41,842 nt of DNA from Candidatus Faecenecus gallistercoris (GTDB taxonomy: Bacteria > Bacillota_I > Bacilli_A > RF39 > UBA660): assembly GCA_018713065.1 (NCBI GenBank), contig DVFU01000023.1:1-41842 (forward strand). The letters are read 5' to 3'. Positions 14,591-35,490 of this stretch are shown here, one piece after another (the first letter of the stretch is position 1; each line of letters starts with the position of its first letter). A program made the position numbers and the translations under genes. Under the pieces are notes generated by a model, which saw only the letters and a program-made list of their open reading frames with translations, searched no databases and was not told the DNA's origin.

Positions 14591-15421
14591 CTATTTACCA
14601 TTACGACGACGAACAATATACTTATCAGTATTTTTATTATTACGTGTCTTTCTACCAATTGCAGGTTTACCCCAAGGTGTCATTGGTGACTTACGTCCAA
14701 CTGGAGCTCTACCTTCACCACCACCATGTGGGTGATCGTTTGGATTCATAACAGAACCACGAACAGTAGGACGAATACCCATATGACGTTTACGTCCAGC
14801 CTTACCGATGTTAACCAATTCGTAATCTTCATTACCAACTACACCAACTGTAGCATAGCAAGTACCTAGAACTTTTCTTTGTTCTCCAGAAGCAAGACGA
14901 ATCATAACGTATGCTCCATCTCTACCAAGAATTTGAGCACTTGCACCAGCACTTCTTGCTAGTTCTCCACCCTTACCAGGTTTTAATTCGATGTTGTGAA
15001 CATTCGTACCAACTGGGATATTCATAAGTGGTAATGCGTTACCAACTTTAATGTCAGCATTTGGACCACTCATAATTTTTGTTCCAACTGTTAAATCTTT
15101 TGGTGCGATGATATATCTCTTTTCACCATCTGCATAATTAATTAAAGCGATATTCGCACTTCTGTTTGGATCGTATTCGATAGAAGCAACTGTACCGGGA
15201 ATATCCAATTTATTTCTCTTAAAATCGATAATACGGTATTTTCTCTTTGCTCCTCCACCGATATGTCTAACAGTAATACGTCCTTGATGGTTACGTCCAC
15301 CAGTTTTCTTAACTTTAGCTAATAAACTTTTTTCAGGAGTGCTCTTTGTAATTTCGCTATTTACCAAACGAGTCATTTCTCTTTGACCATTTGTATTAGG
15401 TTTGATTGTTCTAATTGCCAT
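14591..15421 (-). CDS. rplB: 50S ribosomal protein L2
   Basis: ...[18 protein letters not shown]. Confidence 0.97.
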
Positions 15422-15433
15422 ACTCTAACCCTC

Positions 15434-15718
15434 CTATTGAAGATCGATTGTTTGGCCTTCTGCTAATTTAACGATTGCTTTTTTGCTACGATTCGTCAAA
15501 CCAGTATAACGTCCAACTCTTCTCTTCTTCGTTTTTACATTAATCGTACGAATAGATTCAACTTTAACATTGAAGATTCTTTCGATTGCATTCTTAATTT
15601 CAACTTTGTTTGCTTTTGGATCAACTGCAAATGTATATTTGCCTTCATCACGATTTAAGCTACCACTTTTTTCAGTAATAACTGGTGCCTTAATAATTGT
15701 TAAATATTTTGTATCCAT
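15434..15718 (-). CDS. rplW: 50S ribosomal protein L23
   Basis: Sequence and operon position. Confidence 0.95.
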
Positions 15719-15719
15719 A

Positions 15720-16346
15720 TTAAGCTAGCACCTCCTCAATTTGTTTTAATGCATCCTCTGTTACAACCATGTAATCAGAAGTAACGATATCCAAAACATT
15801 GATTTCGCTAACTTCTTCTAATAAAACATTTTGTAAATTAGAAGCTGCGAATAATAAATTTTCTTCAATTTCTGGAACAACTACCAAAACCTTTTTATCT
15901 GTTACTTGTAAGTTATTTAAAACAGCAACCATTTCTTTTGTTTTTGGTGTTTCTAATTTTAATGAGTCAAGAACGATTAGTTCACCATCGTTAGCCTTTG
16001 TTGCCAAAGCACTCTTCAATGCTAAACGACGTTCTTTACGATTCATATTGATACTATAATCTCTTGGAACTGGTCCACCGTAAGTACCACCCTTACGCCA
16101 TTGAACAGCACGGATTGATCCTTGACGAGCATGTCCTGTTCCTTTTTGTCTCCATGGCTTTCTACCGCCACCACTAACTTCTGCACGTGTTTTTGTCTTG
16201 TGAGTACCTTGTCTTAAAGATGCTCTTGTTAAAATTACTGCATCGTAGACAACTTTATCATTTGGTGTAATACCAAAGATCGTATTACTAAGTTTGATAT
16301 CTTTTAGTTTTTCACCTTTTATGTTTAAAAGTTTTACTTTTTCCAT
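15720..16346 (-). CDS. rplD: 50S ribosomal protein L4
   Basis: ORF 15720..16352. ATG 16346 has the better spacing (8 nt) from the GGGAGG RBS. Confidence 0.94.
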
Positions 16347-16396
16347 CTTCATATCCTCCCTTCATCACATTTCCATTATTAAACTATTCTCTGTTT

Positions 16397-17110
16397 TTAA
16401 GCCTCTTGTGATGATTCTGTTTCTGCTTCTTTGTTTTCAGGTTCTACATTGTAAACAACTAAATCGATTGGAGTTGCTTTTGTATTTCCCTTTTTAACAG
16501 CAGTTTTAATGATTACGAAAGACTTCTTTGGTCCTGGAACATTACCTTTAATTAAGATAACGTTGTTTTCCATATCGACAGCAACAACCTCTTCATTTTG
16601 AACAGTTCTTGTTGCAGAACCCATATGACCTGGTAATTTTTTACCTTTAATAACGTGCATTGGTAACATAGTACCTAGAGAACCAACACCTCTATGATAT
16701 TGAGATCCATGACCCATCGGGCCTCTCGTTTGATTCCAGCGTTTGATAACGCCTTGGAATCCTTTACCTTTGCTGACGCCTTGTACGTCAACGATATCGC
16801 CTGCTGCAAATGTATCAGCAGCAATTACTTGTCCTAATGTATATTCACTAGGATCTACCCCTCTGATTTCTTTTAAGAAGCGCTTAGGTTCTGTATTAGC
16901 TTTTTTAACATGACCTATAGCAGCCTTATTGCTATTCTTTTCTTTCATTGTGAATGCGCCAAGTTGCACAGCATCATAACCATCTTTTTCTTTTGTTTTG
17001 ATTTGCGTTACAACGTTTGGTTCAATCTCAACAACAGTAACTGGAACTAGTTTGCCATCTTTAGCAAAAACTTGAGTCATTCCAATTTTTCTACCTAAGA
17101 TTCCTTTCAT
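16397..17110 (-). CDS. rplC: 50S ribosomal protein L3 (with acidic C-terminal extension)
   Basis: [15 protein letters not shown]... Confidence 0.96.
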
Positions 17111-17126
17111 ATTATTTTCCTCCTAA

Positions 17127-17435
17127 TTATAATTTGATTTCAATATCAACACCGCTTGGTAAATCTAGATGAGTTAATGCATCAATTGTTTCCTTGCTTG
17201 GATTTTTGATATCAATAAGTCTCTTGTGTGTACGCATTTCGAATTGTTCACGTGAATCCTTATATTTATGAACAGCTCTTAAAATCGTAAACTTTTCAAC
17301 TTCAGTAGGAAGTGGTACAGGTCCACTGATTTCTCCTCCTGATCTCTTAACAGTTTCAACAATTTTTGTAGCGGCATTATCTAGAATTCTGTGATCGTAT
17401 GCTTTCAAACGAATACGAACTTTTTCCTTTGACAT
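17127..17435 (-). CDS. rpsJ: 30S ribosomal protein S10
   Basis: [19 protein letters not shown]...; first gene of the S10 operon. Confidence 0.97.
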
Positions 17436-17557
17436 TTTAAATCCTCCCTTCGCCTATATCTAGTATAGACTTGCTCCGTGTGAATAACCCGATACTTTCC
17501 AGCAACTTATCCTGGTGTATCGACAACCTCCCACATCTAAGCAGCCACACGACCATA
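17436..17557 (-). promoter_or_regulatory. Structured 5' leader of the S10 operon (about 115 nt), a candidate ribosomal-protein autoregulatory leader
   Basis: Nested stems on the minus strand. The outer pair is GTGTG (17546-17550) with CACAC (17478-17482). The inner hairpin is CGATAC-a-CCAG...CTGG-aaa-GTATCG (17490-17522). A second GGGAGG copy occurs in the leader in addition to the true RBS. Confidence 0.45.
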
Positions 17558-17586
17558 ATTATAGCATAGCAACATCAAAAAAACAA
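17558..17586 (-). promoter_or_regulatory. Sigma-A-type promoter of the S10/spc/alpha ribosomal superoperon
   Basis: On the minus strand: -35 TTGTTT, 17-nt spacer, then extended -10 TGCTATAAT (the ATTATA complement is at 17558-17563). Confidence 0.65.
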
Positions 17587-17623
17587 GCGTTTTTTTAGGT
17601 TTTCTAAAAATATTTACGCTTGT
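17577..17623 (-). terminator. Terminator of the five-gene accessory operon (composite hairpin plus T-run)
   Basis: On the minus strand: ACAAGCGT-aaata-TTTTTAG-aaaac-CTAAAAA-ACGCTTGT followed by 7 T. The T-run overlaps the -35 of the S10 promoter. Confidence 0.5.
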
Positions 17624-17636
17624 ATTCGACAAAATA

Positions 17637-19214
17637 TTAACTTAAATCAAATTTTTTCGGATTGGAAACTGTCTCTTTTGTAAGTTTCAGAACTTTGTAA
17701 GTGCCAGCTGGTTCTAGTGCCATTTCATGTTCGGCAGAAGTTAAGCTCGCCATTACGATATTATTTAAATCGCGCATACTTTGATCAGACTCATCTAATT
17801 TTGCAAGTAAAGCATCAAAGTATGACATATCCGGTTTCGTTTCCACTTGAAATTGACGTTCGTATCTAGCCTTCTTCTTTTGGAATACAGATGAACGGGA
17901 ATGTTGTAAAATATCCAGTTTCGTTTCATGATCCAATACGTTATAAACAACTAAATGTGGAAAACGACTCACTAACTCTTTGTTAAACGCAGTTTCTTTG
18001 CTAAGCCTAGATGCATCAAATTGAACAGGACCATTCACTGCTCCAAAACCGATTTTTTTATCGGCATTAAACAAATTAGAAAATGTTCCAGAAAAGATGC
18101 GATGCAAAGAATTAGTCGGAAACATCCGGACCTGATTGGACAATGCAGTTTTTCTAAAATAAAACGGATCTCCTTCGATAAAGTTCATAATGACATTCAT
18201 AATAGCAGAAACGTAATCACGACACTGTTCGCCTATTTTATCGAACTCATCGATGTAGACGATACCACGAGATGCCATACTTAAATCAGAGTCACATTGC
18301 GACAAAAGAGAAAAAAATCCATCTTCCAAACTAGTTCCTTTGATACCGGGAGGGACAAAAGTAGAACCTTTGAGTTCAACCATCGGCAAATTCAGATATT
18401 CCATCGCAGCGCGAACCGTCTGAGTCTTTCCCGTACCAGTCGGGCCCACCAATAAAATGGATTCCGTTTTCTCATCCGGCAATGCTGTATAATTCATATA
18501 AATGGTAGTCGCAAGCTGACTAATTTCGTCATCGTGACCAAACACTCGCTCTTTCATGTAAGTCTCTAATCCTCGTAACGAGATATCAGGATTAACAGCA
18601 GGCGTTTGATTGGAAATAATTGTTTCTGGAGCGATGTTCTTATCTAAGTAAAGTCCTTTTAATGTATCCCCTTCAATAGCGATACCAACAACACCCAAAG
18701 AACCAAAAACTTCTGTCTTTTTCACACCATCCGATAATGCTAGTAAACGGCAACGAACACGATTCACATCAGGCTCTGATAACAACTGACTTAGCGATTC
18801 ACTATTTAACGTAACAGTTGGCGAATCTTGATCTAGTCGATAAACTGTTTCCTCTTTTACTTTGGAAAGTGCATGTAAATCGACTTTGCGTTCCACTACT
18901 TTTCCATCTTGAACAGTCACATATAAAATATACTGCCGTTCGGTTTCCCAAAAGAACTGTAACAGAAAGTTCTGATCATCTTTATTATTCGAATGATAAA
19001 TTTCCTGTAAATGGGAAAGAGAAAAGATGTTATCAACTAAATAATTTTCCTCTTCCAATGCCTTTTCAAATGACGGCTTATGATAGATGGTATCCGAACA
19101 AAAGTCATCGTTAACGCAGTATCCTTGTACAATATCAACTGGATACAAGATGTACTCTTTTTCTCCTAAAGGAAGTTTTCCATACCGAATTCCATATTCC
19201 ATTTCCTGTTCCAT
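17637..19214 (-). CDS. ClpX-derived AAA+ ATPase with a novel N-terminal domain. It has no zinc-binding domain, the pore-1 loop reads GIKG, and the IGF tripeptide is retained.
   Basis: The C-terminal ~270 aa align by eye to E. coli ClpX. Shared elements are Walker A LLVGPTGTGKT, Walker B RGIVYIDEFDK, the IGF loop KKIGFGA (codons 18045-18053) and the sensor region ELVSRFPHLVV. GYVG is replaced by GIKG (18336-18347). The ORF-track start at 19301 is a TTG. ATG 19214 (MEQEMEYG) has a GGGGGA RBS 7 nt upstream. Confidence 0.8.
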   Translation of the reverse strand: MEQEMEYGIRYGKLPLGEKEYILYPVDIVQGYCVNDDFCSDTIYHKPSFEKALEEENYLVDNIFSLSHLQEIYHSNNKDDQNFLLQFFWETERQYILYVTVQDGKVVERKVDLHALSKVKEETVYRLDQDSPTVTLNSESLSQLLSEPDVNRVRCRLLALSDGVKKTEVFGSLGVVGIAIEGDTLKGLYLDKNIAPETIISNQTPAVNPDISLRGLETYMKERVFGHDDEISQLATTIYMNYTALPDEKTESILLVGPTGTGKTQTVRAAMEYLNLPMVELKGSTFVPPGIKGTSLEDGFFSLLSQCDSDLSMASRGIVYIDEFDKIGEQCRDYVSAIMNVIMNFIEGDPFYFRKTALSNQVRMFPTNSLHRIFSGTFSNLFNADKKIGFGAVNGPVQFDASRLSKETAFNKELVSRFPHLVVYNVLDHETKLDILQHSRSSVFQKKKARYERQFQVETKPDMSYFDALLAKLDESDQSMRDLNNIVMASLTSAEHEMALEPAGTYKVLKLTKETVSNPKKFDLS

Positions 19215-19301
19215 ACCAAAATCCCCCAACAATTCACGATTTAATATCCTTGTGAACCTTATTATAAAATAGGATCCCAAATTAGTCAAAAAAAACTGCA
19301 A

Positions 19302-20225
19302 TTACTTATAATTACAGTTCGCATTGAATACTTCGATCATTTGCATCGCTTCCTGATACAAAGAACGAATTTGATTTAATTTCATCTTCTTGAAAAACAC
19401 CGTCTTCTCATATTCCTGTTCCAACTTAATCATTCGAATTAAAATCGCAATAAAACGCTTGTAACTTCCTTTCTTACCGATAATCTGATCAAACCAAGAA
19501 TCCATATCGTCGATATTACCAGAAAAGCGTAGAGATGAAAACGTTGCTAAAAACGTTCGGTTTTTCATTAATTCTTTACACAAATAAGATTGTAATCCGT
19601 AAGCATTCGATGTATAACTGCCCGAAATGCTAGAATCGATTGCATATAATGTCGCTGCAATCGTATTGGATAACGGAATCGTTCGAAAAGAATGAATAAT
19701 ATCGATGATTTCTTCTGTCTGTTTGGTATTGATAATCTCTTCCAAAATGTAATCGTCATCCTTGCGAATAACTTGCATTGTCTTCTTATTATAATGAATA
19801 TGACAAATTCCCGTCCGCAATGTGAACGTGTCCCCTTGATCCATAATTTCATTTTCAAACGAATTGACCGCATGGTTATATTCGTGAACTAAGTTATCTA
19901 ATAAGGACATCAATGGAATATTTTGGTAATTTTGTAATACGATTACTTTATCCGTTACAATATGACCATCTTGTAATCTGGGCATACTCGTATAAAAAGC
20001 CTGTTCTCGTTCGTTGTGTTCGTCCCGAATCAAGATCGGCACACTCTCGAAAATTCGCAAAATTTTATGTTCCGCAGATAATCCATATTTTAAAATAAAA
20101 GCAGGGATAATCAAATGAAGTAGATGCCCAATATTTTCTGGATACCGAAACTTCGTATTTAAATTATCTATCGATACTTTCGTCTTCCGAAACAAATCTT
20201 GTACAATAGCAACATTATTTTCCAT
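19302..20225 (-). CDS. Hypothetical protein with a single HExxH zincin-like motif (putative metallopeptidase, family not recognised)
   Basis: NLVHEYNHA motif (codons 19872-19886). ATG 20225 is preceded by a GGGAG RBS and overlaps the polymerase gene 3' end by 11 nt. The ORF-track start at 20234 is a GTG. Confidence 0.6.
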   Translation of the reverse strand: MENNVAIVQDLFRKTKVSIDNLNTKFRYPENIGHLLHLIIPAFILKYGLSAEHKILRIFESVPILIRDEHNEREQAFYTSMPRLQDGHIVTDKVIVLQNYQNIPLMSLLDNLVHEYNHAVNSFENEIMDQGDTFTLRTGICHIHYNKKTMQVIRKDDDYILEEIINTKQTEEIIDIIHSFRTIPLSNTIAATLYAIDSSISGSYTSNAYGLQSYLCKELMKNRTFLATFSSLRFSGNIDDMDSWFDQIIGKKGSYKRFIAILIRMIKLEQEYEKTVFFKKMKLNQIRSLYQEAMQMIEVFNANCNYK

Positions 20226-21429
20226 CACGGTCACTCCCTTCTTCTTTCAAACTAGCAGGCATAATGATATCTTTACCGAACTTACTACGAATCTGATCGA
20301 CAGCTTCCTGCACTTTAGAGGAACCATCATCGACAGTATCGGTATCAAAAAGAGAAATCTGGGTCATATTCGTTTTGACAAAGTTACCCAACCGAATACC
20401 AATCAAACGAATCGGTTCACCTTTCCAAGCCCGTTCAAACAAAGCGTATGCCTTTTTAAAAATGTCTTCACTGACATTGGTAGGATTTTCCAATTTGCAC
20501 TGGTGTGAATAATTGACGAATGCATCCGTTCGAATGATGATTGCAATACTAGTCGCATATAGTTTCTTTTCACGCGCTTCTAATCCAACCTCATCGGCTT
20601 GAGATAAAAGCATTTTACGAATATATGATTTATCGGTCACATCAAATGGCAACGTAGCAGTCGTAGAAATGCTTTTCCGCTCCGCCCGTTCGGAAGTCAC
20701 CGGTGTATCATCGATACCCAGAGAGGCATTGTGCATGTAAATAGCATTGCTTTTAAAGTACTTTGTGAGTAACGAAACATCTGTTTTTGCTAACTCCCCA
20801 ATCGTGTGTATTCCAAGTGCCTTCAATGTTTCAGCACTTCGTTTTCCGATGAACAAAAGATCTCCAACATCCAAAGGCCACATCTTCTCTTCCACCTCAG
20901 AAGCAAACAATGTATGAACCTTATTCGGTTTTTCGAAATCACTAGCCATTTTAGCACAAAGTCGATTATTCGCAATTCCAACGTTCACCGTAATTCCAAA
21001 CTTCTCATGAATCTCATCTTTCATCTGATAAGCAAGCCGAATCAAGTCATCATATAAATAGTGTGTCCCAGTCATATCTAAAAAACACTCATCAACCGAA
21101 AATCGTTCGACCGTCGGTGTAAACTGTAAATAATATTGATACAACTTATCACTTTCTCGTTTGTATAATTCGTGATTGGCTGGAAAAACTTTCAAACCTG
21201 GACATTTTCTTCTCGCTTGATACAAAGTTTCTGCTGTTTTTACACCATACTTTTTAGCAACTGGACTTTTCGCTACGACAATACCACGTCTAGCATCTTC
21301 ATCGCCACCTATGACAGAAGGAATATTTCGAATATCTTCCGTCGCTCCACGGCGCAACATATCGACAGCAGTCCATGATAAAAAAGCATTGTTAACATCG
21401 ATATGAAATATGATTCGTTCTTCCTTCAT
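20215..21429 (-). CDS. dinB: Y-family DNA polymerase (Pol IV / UmuC-like translesion polymerase)
   Basis: N-terminal IFHIDVNNAFLSW (a UmuC-like DxN variant of the DMDAFFAS motif), catalytic SVDECFLDMT, and the little-finger region. 404 aa. Confidence 0.85.
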   Translation of the reverse strand: MKEERIIFHIDVNNAFLSWTAVDMLRRGATEDIRNIPSVIGGDEDARRGIVVAKSPVAKKYGVKTAETLYQARRKCPGLKVFPANHELYKRESDKLYQYYLQFTPTVERFSVDECFLDMTGTHYLYDDLIRLAYQMKDEIHEKFGITVNVGIANNRLCAKMASDFEKPNKVHTLFASEVEEKMWPLDVGDLLFIGKRSAETLKALGIHTIGELAKTDVSLLTKYFKSNAIYMHNASLGIDDTPVTSERAERKSISTTATLPFDVTDKSYIRKMLLSQADEVGLEAREKKLYATSIAIIIRTDAFVNYSHQCKLENPTNVSEDIFKKAYALFERAWKGEPIRLIGIRLGNFVKTNMTQISLFDTDTVDDGSSKVQEAVDQIRSKFGKDIIMPASLKEEGSDRDGK

Positions 21430-21521: not shown

Positions 21522-22271
21522 TTATTTTGAACTCAAGAACATCCGGTATCCTTTTTTAATCGCATCGTCGATATTTTCTTTAGGAAACAATGTCTGTAAT
21601 TCAAACATAACCAAAGAGTGTTTATGATCATAACAAAAAGACTCAGCCGCATAATGCATACCCGGAATATCGTAAAAAAGGCCTTTGATTGCAGCACGAT
21701 TTAAAATAGGATCGATGACCATCTCACTGTACTCCCAAATCGTTCCAGGATACAAAAATGTAGAAGGTTTGCTAAAGCGATGTAACAAACGCCACTTCTG
21801 AAAATATAAAAAGTGTGTCAGTTCGTGAATCAAATTAGAGAACACCTCTCCCATCGAGCTGCTACATAGATAGATAGAAGAAGTCTCAGAAATCCCAAAA
21901 TGAGCAGGTAAAATTCCAACATAAACAGAAATTACCTTCATGGACTCCGGCCAATCACAACCGAGTACCTGCGATAAAAACGACAAAAAAGACTTGCTAG
22001 AAACATCGAAATATTGCTGATAGTCAATTAACAATCGGTCCATATCGAACGATTCTTCCTGATAAGAACGAATGACTTCCTCCTCGATTTCTTTGATAAT
22101 TCCATCTTCGGTCATATTGCTACGAATAATTTCTCTTAAAGCCGGAAACGTTCGAATCATCGCATCCCGTCGATTGATAAAATCATCTTCTCGTTCATTT
22201 TGATAAAACTGAATCACATAATTCACATTTTCTTCTACCGACAATTTATGAAAAACAATTTTAGGAACCAT
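21522..22271 (-). CDS. Hypothetical protein with an HExxH zincin-like motif (second putative metallopeptidase)
   Basis: NLIHELTHFLYFQKWRLLH (HExxH codons 21813-21827). I moved the start to ATG 22271 (MVPKIVF), which is preceded by a GGAGG RBS. Confidence 0.6.
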   Translation of the reverse strand: MVPKIVFHKLSVEENVNYVIQFYQNEREDDFINRRDAMIRTFPALREIIRSNMTEDGIIKEIEEEVIRSYQEESFDMDRLLIDYQQYFDVSSKSFLSFLSQVLGCDWPESMKVISVYVGILPAHFGISETSSIYLCSSSMGEVFSNLIHELTHFLYFQKWRLLHRFSKPSTFLYPGTIWEYSEMVIDPILNRAAIKGLFYDIPGMHYAAESFCYDHKHSLVMFELQTLFPKENIDDAIKKGYRMFLSSK

Positions 22272-22322: not shown

Positions 22323-23597
22323 TTATAAGTATTCTTTAAAACAGAAAGTTGCATAAATCGGAATGTATTTAATTCCCTTTTTGAGAGAGAAATTCTCTTC
22401 ACTAACTCGAATTGCCTCATGAATATCGTATTTATTCATAAACAAAGTAAGTGATTTTGCTTTCGACAAATTCGTATTGACTAACTCGATTGGAACAATC
22501 TTACCAAGTCTAGACTGAACGATGAAACTAACTTCAGCCTTTCCTTCTGATGCATAATAATAAAGGTTATAGCCAGAAGAAACGATATTGTTAGCAATAC
22601 TAGTCTCATATAAAATATTCTTTAATTTGTCATCCTGTAACAATTTAATTTGATTTAAATGCAACTGATAGAATAAAATTCCCGTATCATTCGGATACAA
22701 TTTGAAGGAATCTTTATCTTTAAACTTCGATAATGGCATTCCCACATTCGATACTTTATAACAACGATAGACAAAATTGTTGTTACTTAAGAAATCGATA
22801 GCCGCCTCGTAATCTTTACTTCTACTTCCTTCCCTCATCAATCCATATTGAAATTTATGATTCGGTTTTAAGAATTGATACGGCATGATATCCAATACTT
22901 CATTTGCTCGCGTCGTATCGATCAAAGTAGGCATGAACAGCAATGATCTTTTATAACAATCGATCATCTTCTGATGAACAGAATTCAAATAAGCAAAATT
23001 AGGATTGTGGAAGGATGCTTCAATTGCTTCTGGAAGACCACCAGTCATGAGATAATTTTGAAAGTGATCCATAGCAATTTGATGGAACGGAATCGGTTTA
23101 TTATTTTTATATGAATCTTTGATAAAGTCGATTAATTGATTTTGATTACAAGCTTTTAAATACTCTTCAAAGTCAACTGGGAACATATACTTATACTGTA
23201 ACTCTTCCCCTTTAAATTTAACTAAGTTCTCCTTTAAAGATGTAATCATAATGACGTGATAATCGCATTCTCCTTTGCCAAACAACTTGACCATCTTGAC
23301 GATATCTAAGTCATTGATATTGTCGAATACAATCAACGTATCTTTCTTTAAAATCGGTTCTCCTACCAAAAGAGCAAGGCGAAGAACAATTTTTTCAACC
23401 GAATTCTCTCGTTTTGCAATCGATAACAATTCATAATTATTTTCACAATTGATATAGGCGACAGTCTTGTATTCCTTCTCGCCAAAAGCAAGCACCGAAT
23501 ACGTTTTTCCAATCTGTCTGTTTCCATATAAAAGTAACGGTTTCCGATTTATATCTTTTTTCCATCGTAGGAAATCATTCATAATTTTTCGTTCCAT
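22323..23597 (-). CDS. AAA_14/DUF4143-type ATPase (COG1373-like predicted AAA+ ATPase with C-terminal nuclease-like domain)
   Basis: P-loop LLLYGNRQIGKTY, Walker B-like TLIVFDNIND, and the characteristic FKLYPNDTGIL motif of the DUF4143 region. 424 aa with a GGAGG RBS. Confidence 0.75.
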   Translation of the reverse strand: MERKIMNDFLRWKKDINRKPLLLYGNRQIGKTYSVLAFGEKEYKTVAYINCENNYELLSIAKRENSVEKIVLRLALLVGEPILKKDTLIVFDNINDLDIVKMVKLFGKGECDYHVIMITSLKENLVKFKGEELQYKYMFPVDFEEYLKACNQNQLIDFIKDSYKNNKPIPFHQIAMDHFQNYLMTGGLPEAIEASFHNPNFAYLNSVHQKMIDCYKRSLLFMPTLIDTTRANEVLDIMPYQFLKPNHKFQYGLMREGSRSKDYEAAIDFLSNNNFVYRCYKVSNVGMPLSKFKDKDSFKLYPNDTGILFYQLHLNQIKLLQDDKLKNILYETSIANNIVSSGYNLYYYASEGKAEVSFIVQSRLGKIVPIELVNTNLSKAKSLTLFMNKYDIHEAIRVSEENFSLKKGIKYIPIYATFCFKEYL

Positions 23598-30596: not shown

Positions 30597-33035
30597 TTAC
30601 TTTGCTTTAGAGGAATGATTCGTTTCTTCACTCATTCCTCCATTTGTATTTTTTAATCCGTTAACCATATCTGCAACAATTTTTTCAGCCAGTACTTCAC
30701 TATCTAACGTATTAGGTACTGTTTGATTAATAGATAAAGATGCTTGCTCAGTCTTAGACTTTTCACGTTGCTCTTTTTCACGAATAATTGCTTTTTTGAT
30801 ATCAACATCATCTTTCCATTCTTCGCCTAAATAAACATTCGGATTTGCTTGAATTGCTTGCAAAACAAATTGCTTATCTTGTTTTAATGTAGAATCCGCA
30901 TCTATCATGACATATTCACATGCTTTGATAGCTTCAAGCATGAATTCTGGATTCTTTCTTAACTCAGCACTGGCGCTTCGAAGAGGAGTGCCGGAATCTT
31001 CAATTTCATTTCTTAATTCGTTAAAATCGGTTTGAGAATCTTTTCTATATTCATCAACCAGATTATTAAATGATTGAATTGCTGTCATAACAACCGCAGG
31101 ATTATTTTTTACTTCAGCACCAGCATATTCAAAAACACTATAATTTTGTTGTACAGCCGTCATTACAAATTCAGGGTTAGATTTCAGTTCTTCACTAGCA
31201 AATGCAAAAGCAGCACCATTTGGTTTTAAAGCCGCCATAACAATTTCGGGATTATTTTTTAAATTTTTACTGGCATACTGTAATGCAATACCATAACTTT
31301 TGGCTACGGCAAGCATAACAATTTCTGGGTTATTTTTCAACTCGTCACTCGCAAATCGCAAAGCTAAACCATTTAGATTTACAACCTTCTTAACAAATTC
31401 GAAATTTGATTTTATCTCATCACTTGCATATTGCAAAGCTTGGTGATACTGTTTTACGGCTGCCATAACAATTTTAGAATCAGATTTTAATTCTTCACTA
31501 GCATATTCCAAAGCAAGACCATTTTGTTTTACGGCTTCTAACATAAACTCTGGATTAGATTTCATTTCTTCGCCAGCATATTCCAAAACATTATAATTCA
31601 GTTTTACAGCCTCTAGCATAAACTCTGAATTGGATTTCAAATCTTCGCTAGCATATACCAAAGCAAAACCATTTTGTTTTATGGCCTCTAAAATGATTGT
31701 AGGATTAGACCTCATCTCTTCACTAGCATATTCCAAAGCAAGACCATTTTGTTTTACGACTTCTAACATAAACTCTGGATTAGATTTCAATTCTTCACTA
31801 GCATATTCCAAAGCATGATAATTTTGTCTTACAGCTGCCATAACAACTTCAGGATTATTTTTCAACTCTCCACTAGCAGTTTTAAAAGCAACTTCTCTTA
31901 ATTCATTTAATCTAGGGTCATTTTGCCAACCACATCCCTCGACACTTCCATAAATAAACAACAAATCATCTTTCGTTAACAGTTCATGATTTTGGTATTT
32001 TTTATACATGGTCGTTAGCATTTTAGTGTCATGAAGACGTTTTTTATATTTATCTCGGTCAGGAAAATCTTGAATCTTCTCTTCGACAATCTCCCCAAAG
32101 TTTGGTTCGATGTTTTGATCTTGTGCAATTCCTCTGATTTCGCCAATTTGATTCTTCCCATCCATTCGAATTGCTAAACGTGGATTGGTCGCTTCACCTT
32201 TTTCATCATATGTATAGTAAACATAAAAGTCTCCTCCAGCAAGTTGTTTTTTACAAGTATCTGCTCCAGCCGTACACCAACCAGTATTTTTCCCTTGCAA
32301 AGACTCCCATAATGGATGGTAATCACTTCCCATATCGTACTTTTTCCAAACACCAGCCGTATTTGCATTAAACATGATTTTTTCTTTATGCTGTTTTAAT
32401 AGAAGAGTATATATTTTTTGAAAGTTTCCATTCTCCACTAATTGTTGAAAATTTTCTTCAACTTGTTCTTGATTGACACTTTGAACAATCATATCGATTA
32501 CTTTAGCCAAAACCTCTTGATTTAAGTCTACAAATGGTGCAACCGTACTTTTATCTCTTCTTTTATATACCTCATTTTTATTATCATATGCGCCAATATT
32601 TAACATTCCCTGAAATGCCCAATATTTTGCCCAAGTTGGAAAGAATCTTGCATCGTTACTACTTAAATAATCAATCCACTTATCTAAGGATGTTTTTTGA
32701 TCCGTAAGAATTGTTTGAATATGTTGTTGTTTCAATCGTTCATTTAGATGAATTCCATATTGTTCAAAATACTGAGAATCTAAAAACTGCCAATATTTAT
32801 CAGATATATTTTCTGGTTTGATTACATAATGGTCATAATAAAACTTCTTTAAAGATCGAATTCCTGTATCCGTCGGATGATTCATCACTTTTTCATGAAC
32901 TCGTTCCAAGCGGTCTAAATACTTTTCAATTTTCTCGCTCGGTTTATCGCTAGGAGATGCAGTATGCATGACAACATCACTCATATGCATATCTTTATAA
33001 AGACGATTTAAAAATTCTGTTCCGCTTTTCTCCAT
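30597..33035 (-). CDS. Large repeat protein: unrecognised N-terminal domain of ~390 aa plus ~13 DUF4116-type 25-aa repeats and a Lys/Glu-rich tail
   Basis: The repeat consensus NPEFMLEAVKQNGLALEYASEELKS matches the DUF4116 pattern. I set the start at ATG 33035 (MEKSGTEF), after a TGGAG RBS. The ORF-track extension to 33110 has no RBS. Confidence 0.75.
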   Translation of the reverse strand: MEKSGTEFLNRLYKDMHMSDVVMHTASPSDKPSEKIEKYLDRLERVHEKVMNHPTDTGIRSLKKFYYDHYVIKPENISDKYWQFLDSQYFEQYGIHLNERLKQQHIQTILTDQKTSLDKWIDYLSSNDARFFPTWAKYWAFQGMLNIGAYDNKNEVYKRRDKSTVAPFVDLNQEVLAKVIDMIVQSVNQEQVEENFQQLVENGNFQKIYTLLLKQHKEKIMFNANTAGVWKKYDMGSDYHPLWESLQGKNTGWCTAGADTCKKQLAGGDFYVYYTYDEKGEATNPRLAIRMDGKNQIGEIRGIAQDQNIEPNFGEIVEEKIQDFPDRDKYKKRLHDTKMLTTMYKKYQNHELLTKDDLLFIYGSVEGCGWQNDPRLNELREVAFKTASGELKNNPEVVMAAVRQNYHALEYASEELKSNPEFMLEVVKQNGLALEYASEEMRSNPTIILEAIKQNGFALVYASEDLKSNSEFMLEAVKLNYNVLEYAGEEMKSNPEFMLEAVKQNGLALEYASEELKSDSKIVMAAVKQYHQALQYASDEIKSNFEFVKKVVNLNGLALRFASDELKNNPEIVMLAVAKSYGIALQYASKNLKNNPEIVMAALKPNGAAFAFASEELKSNPEFVMTAVQQNYSVFEYAGAEVKNNPAVVMTAIQSFNNLVDEYRKDSQTDFNELRNEIEDSGTPLRSASAELRKNPEFMLEAIKACEYVMIDADSTLKQDKQFVLQAIQANPNVYLGEEWKDDVDIKKAIIREKEQREKSKTEQASLSINQTVPNTLDSEVLAEKIVADMVNGLKNTNGGMSEETNHSSKAK
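31104..31856 (-). repeat. In-frame tandem array of ten 75-nt units inside the DUF4116 gene; more degenerate copies extend to about 30830-31925
   Basis: The period is 25 codons. The copies at 31501-31564 and 31726-31789 differ at a single position in 64 nt, counted by eye. Confidence 0.85.
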
Positions 33036-33165
33036 ATCTAACACTCCAATCCATTTTAAGAATACCATAATTGCTTCTGAAAAGATATATCTTTTTAAAA
33101 ATATCCACAATTTCTTGTGAATATTTTATTGAAAATTATATTTTATGCACAACGAGTGTGAATAA

Positions 33166-34914: not shown

Positions 34915-35490
34915 ATGAATCTAGTACCAATCGTAGTAGAAAACGAACAAAATGGAGAACGTTCTTACGACTTGTATTCGAAGTTACTAGCAAGTCGCAT
35001 CGTATTTATTAACGGCGAAATTAACGACTCTGTTGCCAGTACAGTAATTGCAGAACTACTGTATTTAGATTCCTTATCAAACGATGATATCAGTATTTAC
35101 ATCAATTCCCCAGGTGGAATGGTTACGGCCGGATTTGCCATATACGACACGATGAATTTTATCAAAAGTGATGTTTCAACCATCGGCATGGGACTTTGTG
35201 CCAGTATGGCTGCATTCTTACTTTCATCCGGCCAAAAAGGAAAACGTTACTTACTTCCCAATGCTGAAGTCATGATTCATCAACCACTTGGAGGTGCCCA
35301 AGGACAAGCCACAGAAATTAAAATCGCATCAGATCATATTTTAGAAACGAAAACAAAATTAAATAAGATTTTAGCCAAAAACACCGGTCAAAAACTGACT
35401 AAAATTATGAAAGATACCGAACGAGACCATTATTTAGACGCAAAAAAAGCCAAAGAATATGGCTTAGTGGATCACATCATTCACTCTTAG
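34915..35490 (+). CDS. clpP: ATP-dependent Clp protease proteolytic subunit ClpP
   Basis: Ser-His-Asp triad contexts [14 protein letters not shown] and RDHYLDA. An AGGTGA RBS precedes it. It is the only plus-strand gene in the window. Confidence 0.95.

Follow-up and report, generated by a model that had tools for sequence, protein, structure and literature searches.

What does a ClpX-like ATPase do when it lacks the zinc-binding domain and the pore tyrosine of ClpX and keeps the loop that docks ClpX onto ClpP? The question is raised by a gene of Candidatus Faecenecus gallistercoris, found in a stretch of 41,842 bp that covers positions 1 to 41,842 of contig DVFU01000023.1 (the window in what follows). 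The answer towards which we lean is that its product is a specialised ClpP-docking unfoldase, in which a new N-terminal domain (N-domain) selects the substrates. The gene and its main parts are as follows.

17637-19214, minus strand: whole gene for the ClpX-like AAA+ ATPase, 525 aa made up of N-domain, linker and ClpX-type AAA+ module (list of open reading frames (ORFs), family alignments)
18645-19214, minus strand: family-specific N-domain (residues 1-190), in the place of the ClpX zinc-binding domain (AlphaFold2)
18582-18644, minus strand: variable linker (residues 191-211), with a predicted local distance difference test (pLDDT) score below 50 at 194-202, gapped and variable in length in the family alignment
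17640-18581, minus strand: ClpX-type AAA+ module, large and small subdomains (residues 212-525; hhalign, Foldseek, phmmer)

The relationship of the C-terminal part to ClpX had been recognised by eye, block by block, in a first-pass annotation of this DNA, and it was reproduced both by phmmer against PDB sequences and by profile-profile alignment. In the phmmer search ClpX proteins were the best matches (E ~1e-15), aligned over residues 218-496. For hhalign, a profile of 84 family sequences was compared with a profile of 25 canonical ClpX sequences headed by E. coli ClpX; residues 212-520 matched E. coli ClpX residues 66-407 with a probability of 99.9 % and an E-value of 7.2e-35. AlphaFold2 models the whole protein with a mean pLDDT of 88.6, and a Foldseek search of the predicted structure against PDB returned ClpX chains at all top 50 positions, with a target-normalised template modelling (TM) score of about 0.8. 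Walker A and B, the Arg finger and sensor-2, as in the ClpX/HslU clade of AAA+ proteins, are all present. They are listed here together with the pore and docking loops.

18423-18446, minus strand: Walker A GPTGTGKT (residues 257-264), invariant in the 84-sequence alignment and GP[TS]GxGKT in nearly all of 241 family members
18246-18251, minus strand: Walker B D322-E323, DE in 239/241 members
17964-17966, minus strand: Arg finger R417, equivalent to ClpX R307 (phmmer and hhalign), R in 240/241 members
17772-17774, minus strand: sensor-2 R481, equivalent to ClpX R370 (phmmer and hhalign), R in 238/241 members
18336-18347, minus strand: pore-1 loop GIKG, G290-I291-K292-G293, equivalent to ClpX G152-Y153-V154-G155 (phmmer, hhalign)
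18207-18239, minus strand: shortened pore-2 region (residues 326-336), 7 residues fewer than in ClpX and without RDVSGEGVQQ (hhalign)
18123-18170, minus strand: shortened RKH-loop region (residues 349-364), with a 7-residue gap facing ClpX PPQGGRKHPQQE (hhalign)
18045-18053, minus strand: ClpP-docking IGF, I388-G389-F390, equivalent to ClpX I268-G269-F270 (phmmer, hhalign)

Judged by these alignments, the product is a ClpX-clade AAA+ protein whose ATP-binding and hydrolysis residues are all intact. It is not a ClpX equivalog. With the equivalog models (TIGR00382 / PRK05342) it scored 62.5 bits against a cut-off of 370.75 and 65.9 bits against 359, and these NCBIfam models covered residues 216-330 only. 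Pfam recognised a generic AAA domain alone (residues 253-350).

Formal alignment sets GIKG exactly on GYVG, as the first-pass annotation had proposed. In the AlphaFold2 model GIKG forms a loop between the strand 278-282 and the helix 296-306. No G-aromatic-x-G or other tyrosine-containing motif of the pore type was found elsewhere in the AAA+ module. The intact IGF falls on ClpX residues 268-270 and is modelled as a coil between the helices 379-382 and 402-407, in agreement with its earlier assignment to the equivalent loop. The suspected shortening of pore-2 and of the RKH loop was likewise real. RDVSGEGVQQ is invariant in the 25-sequence canonical ClpX alignment and absent from the 525-aa protein, and the trimming of both regions is a family-wide trait.

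With full-length proteins alone counted, the family has at least 241 members, which come from uncultured Bacilli. In a first homology search some 88 clusters of full-length proteins came up with identities of 30-66 %, and a gap separated them from true ClpX, at E ~1e-13. A second search, seeded with distant proteins bearing the N-domain, revealed a larger branch, to which over 120 clusters with E < 1e-124 belong. The matches listed in a scan of genome contigs with a generic Walker A pattern were canonical ClpX proteins of unrelated phyla, with no family member among them. The members are annotated as AAA family ATPase of Bacilli bacterium or Ca. Coprovivens sp., with two automatic ClpX labels. 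Both named members are in the order RF39: Ca. Faecenecus gallistercoris is placed in GTDB genus CAG-988, family CAG-611 of this order, and Coprovivens in the same order (PMC8035907). The assignment of the window to Ca. Faecenecus gallistercoris agrees with exact matches of its L2, Spo0A, ClpP and Pol IV proteins.

Motifs were counted in the 241 full-length members. At the IGF position, 238 of them have [IMLVFA]-G-[FY]: IGF in 157, LGF in 32, MGF in 30 and VGF in 11. The motif is thus retained, as the first-pass annotation had claimed for the window protein, and it is better conserved across the family than the pore-1 residue. Pore-1 has the canonical GYVG in 108/241, with GYEG, GYQG, GYYG and other tyrosine variants besides, and rarely Phe or Trp (GFVG 3, GWVG 1). 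Isoleucine is found in 104/241: GIKG in 84, GIVG in 12, GIRG in 5, GIEG in 2 and GIQG in 1. In a neighbour-joining tree of the AAA module, to which the window protein was added, one clade of 112 takes in all 105 Ile sequences (the 104 and the window protein), along with six Tyr-bearing sequences and one GLLV. The confinement of Ile to one clade and the presence of Tyr elsewhere suggest that the aromatic paddle is ancestral and was lost essentially once. The Tyr-less pore is therefore a derived state of one subclade that includes the window gene. Over the AAA module, identity to E. coli ClpX is 31 % in the Tyr branch and 24 % in the Ile branch.

The N-terminal part differs from ClpX. The hhalign match begins at ClpX residue 66. 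The zinc-binding domain zf-C4_ClpX (PF06689) gave no Pfam match, and no conserved Cys was seen in either family alignment. The first-pass annotation was right that the zinc domain is replaced and that there is no Cys4 cluster, and it overstated the size of the replacement: the domain and the linker of about 20 residues add up to some 210 aa, not ~260 aa. AlphaFold2 predicts subdomains rich in beta-hairpins, with residues 150-173 as a long helix and one more hairpin at the end; the prediction is confident both within the whole protein and for the N-domain folded alone (pLDDT 86 alone). In this model the N-domain is tethered in the manner of the ClpX zinc-binding domain.

Pfam at E <= 1 found nothing in the N-domain except a chance match at 0.073. 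Foldseek found no match in PDB (best E 0.19, TM <= 0.2) or among the BFVD viral structures (best E 0.09). Three candidate identities, a Lon-N-like domain, a PAN/OB-collar-like domain and a degenerate zinc-binding domain, were dropped, each being without a structural or sequence match. A search with the N-domain profile of 1.84 billion representatives gave 104 matches, nearly all of them in proteins of about 470-550 aa with the same architecture or in short, probably truncated ORFs; a 684-aa protein was the single outlier. Since, short fragments apart, hardly any protein of another architecture shows the domain, it appears to be specific to the ClpX-like family. It is probably a recognition module of a new type, for substrates or for adaptors. 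We found no account in the literature of a ClpX-type module joined to this N-domain.

One relative, P0064 (L089, 6001-7263), has an S1 domain of the oligonucleotide/oligosaccharide-binding (OB) fold instead of the family N-domain on the same AAA module, which is 48 % identical and has both GIKG and the IGF motif. The presence of an S1 head in place of the N-domain shows that the head is an exchangeable module. The P0064 gene adjoins spore-coat genes.

The start of the gene is well defined. A TTG at 19301 would extend the reading frame to 554 aa, and an extension of this type is used by some gene callers (P0001, 550 aa). We consider it unlikely and prefer the ATG at 19214, because family N-termini line up with MEQEMEYGIRY, that is, with this ATG, and because a promoter and a ribosome-binding site are situated inside the extension. 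Family N-termini, promoter and ribosome-binding site position all back the coordinates 17637-19214 given in the first-pass annotation. The two upstream signals are:

19261-19289, minus strand: sigma-70-like promoter TTGACT-17-TATAAT, 11/12 match, within the 87 bp that separate the gene from its upstream neighbour
19222-19227, minus strand: ribosome-binding site GGGGGA, with a spacing of 7 nt to the ATG, read from the sequence

Comparison with a sister species (L086) shows the ClpX-like protein to evolve faster than every neighbouring gene compared. Amino-acid identity is 95-99.5 % for ribosomal proteins (90.5 % for L6), 86 % for DNA polymerase IV (Pol IV), 80 % for a protein with an HExxH motif encoded next to it and 66 % for the ClpX-like protein. 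In 50-residue windows the N-domain is 50-58 % identical and the AAA module mostly 72-90 %, with a fall to 58 % around the IGF loop. The ratio of nonsynonymous to synonymous substitution rates (dN/dS) of the gene is 0.15 overall, 0.31 in the N-domain and 0.07 in the AAA module. The low values indicate a functional gene under purifying selection.

Across the rpsJ boundary (14591-21429 compared with L086), dS changes from 0.19-0.47 in the ribosomal genes to 1.7-2.5 in Pol IV and the AAA gene. The jump may be due either to a strong codon bias of the ribosomal genes or to a different history (recombination) of the upstream block.

The presumed docking partner is encoded in the same window, and its description as a canonical clpP in the first-pass annotation was confirmed:

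34915-35490, plus strand: canonical clpP, Pfam CLP_protease at E 8e-76, catalytic Ser-His-Asp triad intact

Judging from the motif kept in 238/241 members, continued docking on ClpP is plausible. In the mechanism we propose, the ClpX-like protein would form a hexamer and hydrolyse ATP, and the hexamer would dock on the organism's ClpP via its IGF loops. The tethered N-domain would stand in for the zinc-binding domain, picking restricted substrates or adaptors and passing them to the pore. The simplified pore (Tyr replaced by Ile, pore-2 and RKH loops trimmed) might grip the substrate more weakly or differently and would lack recognition of ssrA tags in the ClpX style. The RKH loop is reportedly tied to ssrA-tag recognition by ClpX (Martin, Baker and Sauer 2008, cited in PMC11423568); as it is missing here, such recognition seems unlikely. 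The gene, chromosomal, would be transcribed on its own and would not be a partner of the upstream Pol IV and HExxH genes.

Several observations weigh against a ClpP-docking unfoldase. The pore-2 loop, which touches ClpP in ClpXP, is truncated, and an aliphatic pore-1 residue may make a poor unfoldase paddle. clpP lies 15.7 kb off on the opposite strand of the same chromosome and is not an operon partner, and no linkage to clpP was seen in any relative's locus examined. The fast divergence from the sister species could also reflect relaxed importance.

The strongest competing explanation, which we regard as quite possible though less probable than a specialised unfoldase, is that the protein is no extra paralogue and represents the organism's sole ClpX: a housekeeping orthologue that diverged heavily in RF39 and had its zinc domain replaced. 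Redundancy is less to be expected in genomes as small as those of RF39, where the longest contig with proteins of the window measures 1.46 Mb. A canonical clpX was found neither in the 41.8-kb window nor in about 184 kb of flanking DNA from relatives, nor in the 10 kb beyond uvrA. The family seems to be inherited vertically with partly conserved synteny (the AAA gene, then a cation ATPase gene, with or without a helicase gene between them), and its other half retains GYVG and the higher identity to E. coli ClpX. However, the 24-31 % identity of the family to ClpX is to be set against 52-76 % among canonical ClpX proteins across phyla in the 25-sequence alignment. The gene outpaces all its compared neighbours, no locus examined has tig as a neighbour, and scores of 62-66 bits are far from equivalog cut-offs of 359-371. 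The broader proposition, that RF39 is without canonical ClpX and that the ClpX-like family is the order's sole ClpX-type partner of ClpP, we consider rather unlikely.

Still less probable, in our view, is a remodeller or chaperone independent of ClpP, in which the ring would act alone to disassemble or unfold a specific client that the N-domain binds, while the IGF-like motif would be kept for some other contact. ClpX has activities independent of ClpP and yeast Mcx1 functions without ClpP, so precedents exist; the truncated pore-2, the loss of the pore-1 Tyr in the subclade of the window gene and the lack of clpP linkage at any locus would fit such a role. Yet a hydrophobic-Gly-Phe motif maintained in almost the whole family, within a loop of variable length, is hard to explain without a function in the ClpP pocket, and ClpP is present in the genome.

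The first-pass annotation had also suggested that the protein may act on a specific client, such as the polymerase or the HExxH protein encoded next to it, as a dedicated adaptor, remodeller or competitor. The minus-strand order of genes in the window is a 249-aa HELTH protein, Y-family Pol IV, a 310-aa HEYNH protein, the ClpX-like gene and the S10 operon. The order Pol IV, HExxH (310 aa), AAA is kept in the sister species, and E. coli offers a precedent in the degradation of UmuD'/UmuC by ClpXP and Lon. However, this order was seen only in the window and in the sister species, and the ClpX-like gene has a strong promoter of its own in an 87-bp gap. In other relatives the gene stands after frr, after efp with ftsK following, or ahead of a cation ATPase gene, and in the GYVG-branch loci it is followed by genes for a UvrD-like helicase and then a glucosaminidase, in one of them also for a cation ATPase. 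None of these other loci examined had Pol IV, an HExxH protein, tig or clpP as a neighbour. Because of the own promoter and the unrelated neighbours in other relatives, a role towards Pol IV or the HExxH protein is unsupported and we hold it to be very improbable, whether as a regulator, an adaptor or a competitor. A passive competitor is further disfavoured by the near invariance of Walker A/B, Arg finger and sensor-2. That a cation ATPase gene recurs beside it suggests that the AAA gene has been inherited vertically and has kept its place on the chromosome in part.

An ATPase of an anti-phage or conflict system, with an arms race behind the fast N-domain, is just as improbable. The N-domain dN/dS and its identity of about 50-58 % between the sister species would agree with it, a PDC-S01-type ATPase is encoded 3 kb upstream, and PADLOC reported weak matches to PDC-M37B (3.7e-9) and DolB (3.5e-8) at residues 211-329. 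However, these matches are limited to the generic Clp N-terminal part of the AAA fold. No full-length match to the PADLOC ATPases PDC-M37B, DolB or IetA was found (residues ~210-330, E 3.7e-9 or weaker), nor partner genes adjacent to the AAA gene, which is a single gene without an effector partner, among housekeeping genes at a partly syntenic site. A tblastn search of phage records gave generic ClpX-like matches to the AAA module at <=33 % identity and no member bearing the N-domain; among the matches listed for viral contigs (IMG/VR) there were likewise generic ClpX-like AAA proteins, <=33 % identical, and no family member. A nucleic-acid translocase, suggested by the pore Lys and by the S1 fusion P0064, was rejected as the principal explanation, as the Lys varies (V/R/E/Q) in the Ile clade, and is also disfavoured by the conserved ClpP-docking motif.

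The proposed ClpP-docking unfoldase can be compared with known systems. With ClpX of E. coli and B. subtilis the window protein shares the AAA+ clade and fold, Walker A/B, the equivalents of R307 and R370, a GGAF-type motif and the IGF loop at the same positions, and a similarly tethered head. In contrast to ClpX it has no C4 zinc-binding domain and carries an unrelated domain of ~190 aa there, has GIKG for GYVG, and has lost the RKH loop and the pore-2 RDVSGEGVQQ; it is about 25 % identical to ClpX, fast-evolving and below the equivalog score. In Myxococcus xanthus, ClpX3 is a ClpX paralogue without the N-domain that is reported to have a specialised, non-essential role (PMC11423568); it was the one useful precedent that the literature yielded. 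It resembles our protein as a ClpX-type ATPase lacking the zinc-binding domain and encoded apart from clpP, but according to that paper ClpX3 is simply without an N-domain, whereas the ClpX-like family gained a new conserved one.

Closest in design is the GYVG half of the family itself (P0274, P0333 and P0354, annotated as AAA family ATPase of Bacilli bacterium). These proteins agree with the window protein in length, in the trimmed RKH and pore-2 regions and in the hydrophobic-Gly-Phe loop; their N-domain is related to its own at a distance (E 1e-8 to 1e-4 by profile), and part of the synteny is shared. Unlike it, they still have an aromatic residue in pore-1 and a sensor-2 motif of the TGAR type, and over the AAA module they are more similar to ClpX (31 % vs 24 % identity).

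HslU (ClpY) belongs to a sister AAA+ clade, and canonical HslU has a GYVG pore loop. It lacks an IGF loop, docks HslV by its C-terminal tail and contains an I-domain as an insertion. The window protein gave only weak partial matches to it (TIGR00390, E 9e-5; PDB HslU, E 7e-8, residues 250-337). Neither the I-domain nor the HslV-docking tail was found, and the C-terminus aligns with that of ClpX (hhalign).

ClpX is among the best-understood unfolding motors, and its pore-1 Tyr is regarded as the substrate gripper. The GYVG branch and the Gly-Ile-x-Gly branch (mostly GIKG, some GIVG) of the family allow an aromatic and an aliphatic paddle to be compared in homologous machines, since both branches keep the ClpP-docking motif and all ATPase residues. 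RF39 bacteria are abundant in the gut and uncultured. Should they indeed be without canonical ClpX, and the family be their sole ClpX-type partner of ClpP, a whole order would run its protease of the ClpXP type with a new head for substrate selection, and a large subclade would do so without an aromatic pore-1 paddle. This would be a natural experiment, showing that an unfoldase coupled to ClpP can do without the Tyr paddle, without the RKH loop and without the zinc-binding domain in vivo. Practical value will be modest as long as no substrate has been identified.

Some features of the loci deserve mention in their own right. In the GYVG branch, a small ORF of 82-89 aa lies 16-20 bp before the AAA gene (L090 9736-9984, L092 9712-9981). 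It has no Pfam match and no counterpart in the window, and could be a partner or adaptor.

The two HExxH genes of the window, 19302-20234 (minus strand, 310 aa, HEYNH) and 21522-22271 (minus strand, 249 aa, HELTH), flank Pol IV (20215-21429). Neither product matched Pfam, NCBIfam, PADLOC or PDB sequences, the 249-aa one having a chance PHROG match at 0.0046, and BLASTP between the two found no similarity past the HExxH motif. Together with Pol IV they may constitute a translesion-polymerase cassette, so far uncharacterised, in which the HExxH proteins would be metalloproteases. In the sister species the Pol IV orthologue (L086, 1-890) appears to be divided into two ORFs of 237 aa and 62 aa, which suggests a frameshift or a pseudogene; the downstream HExxH and AAA genes are intact. 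Between spo0A and the cassette, 22323-23597 (minus strand) encodes the AAA_14/DUF4143 ATPase mentioned above, a full-length match to PADLOC PDC-S01 (E 3e-109).

No tRNA, tmRNA or Rfam element reached threshold in the window (1-41842), despite the presence of S10-spc-alpha operons with known leader elements. Further along, 30597-33110 (minus strand) encodes an 837-aa DUF4116 repeat protein with 10 repeats matched. Its counterpart in an assembly with an identical UvrA (L093 18597-21854) has 1085 aa, and the difference in length points to variation in repeat copy number.

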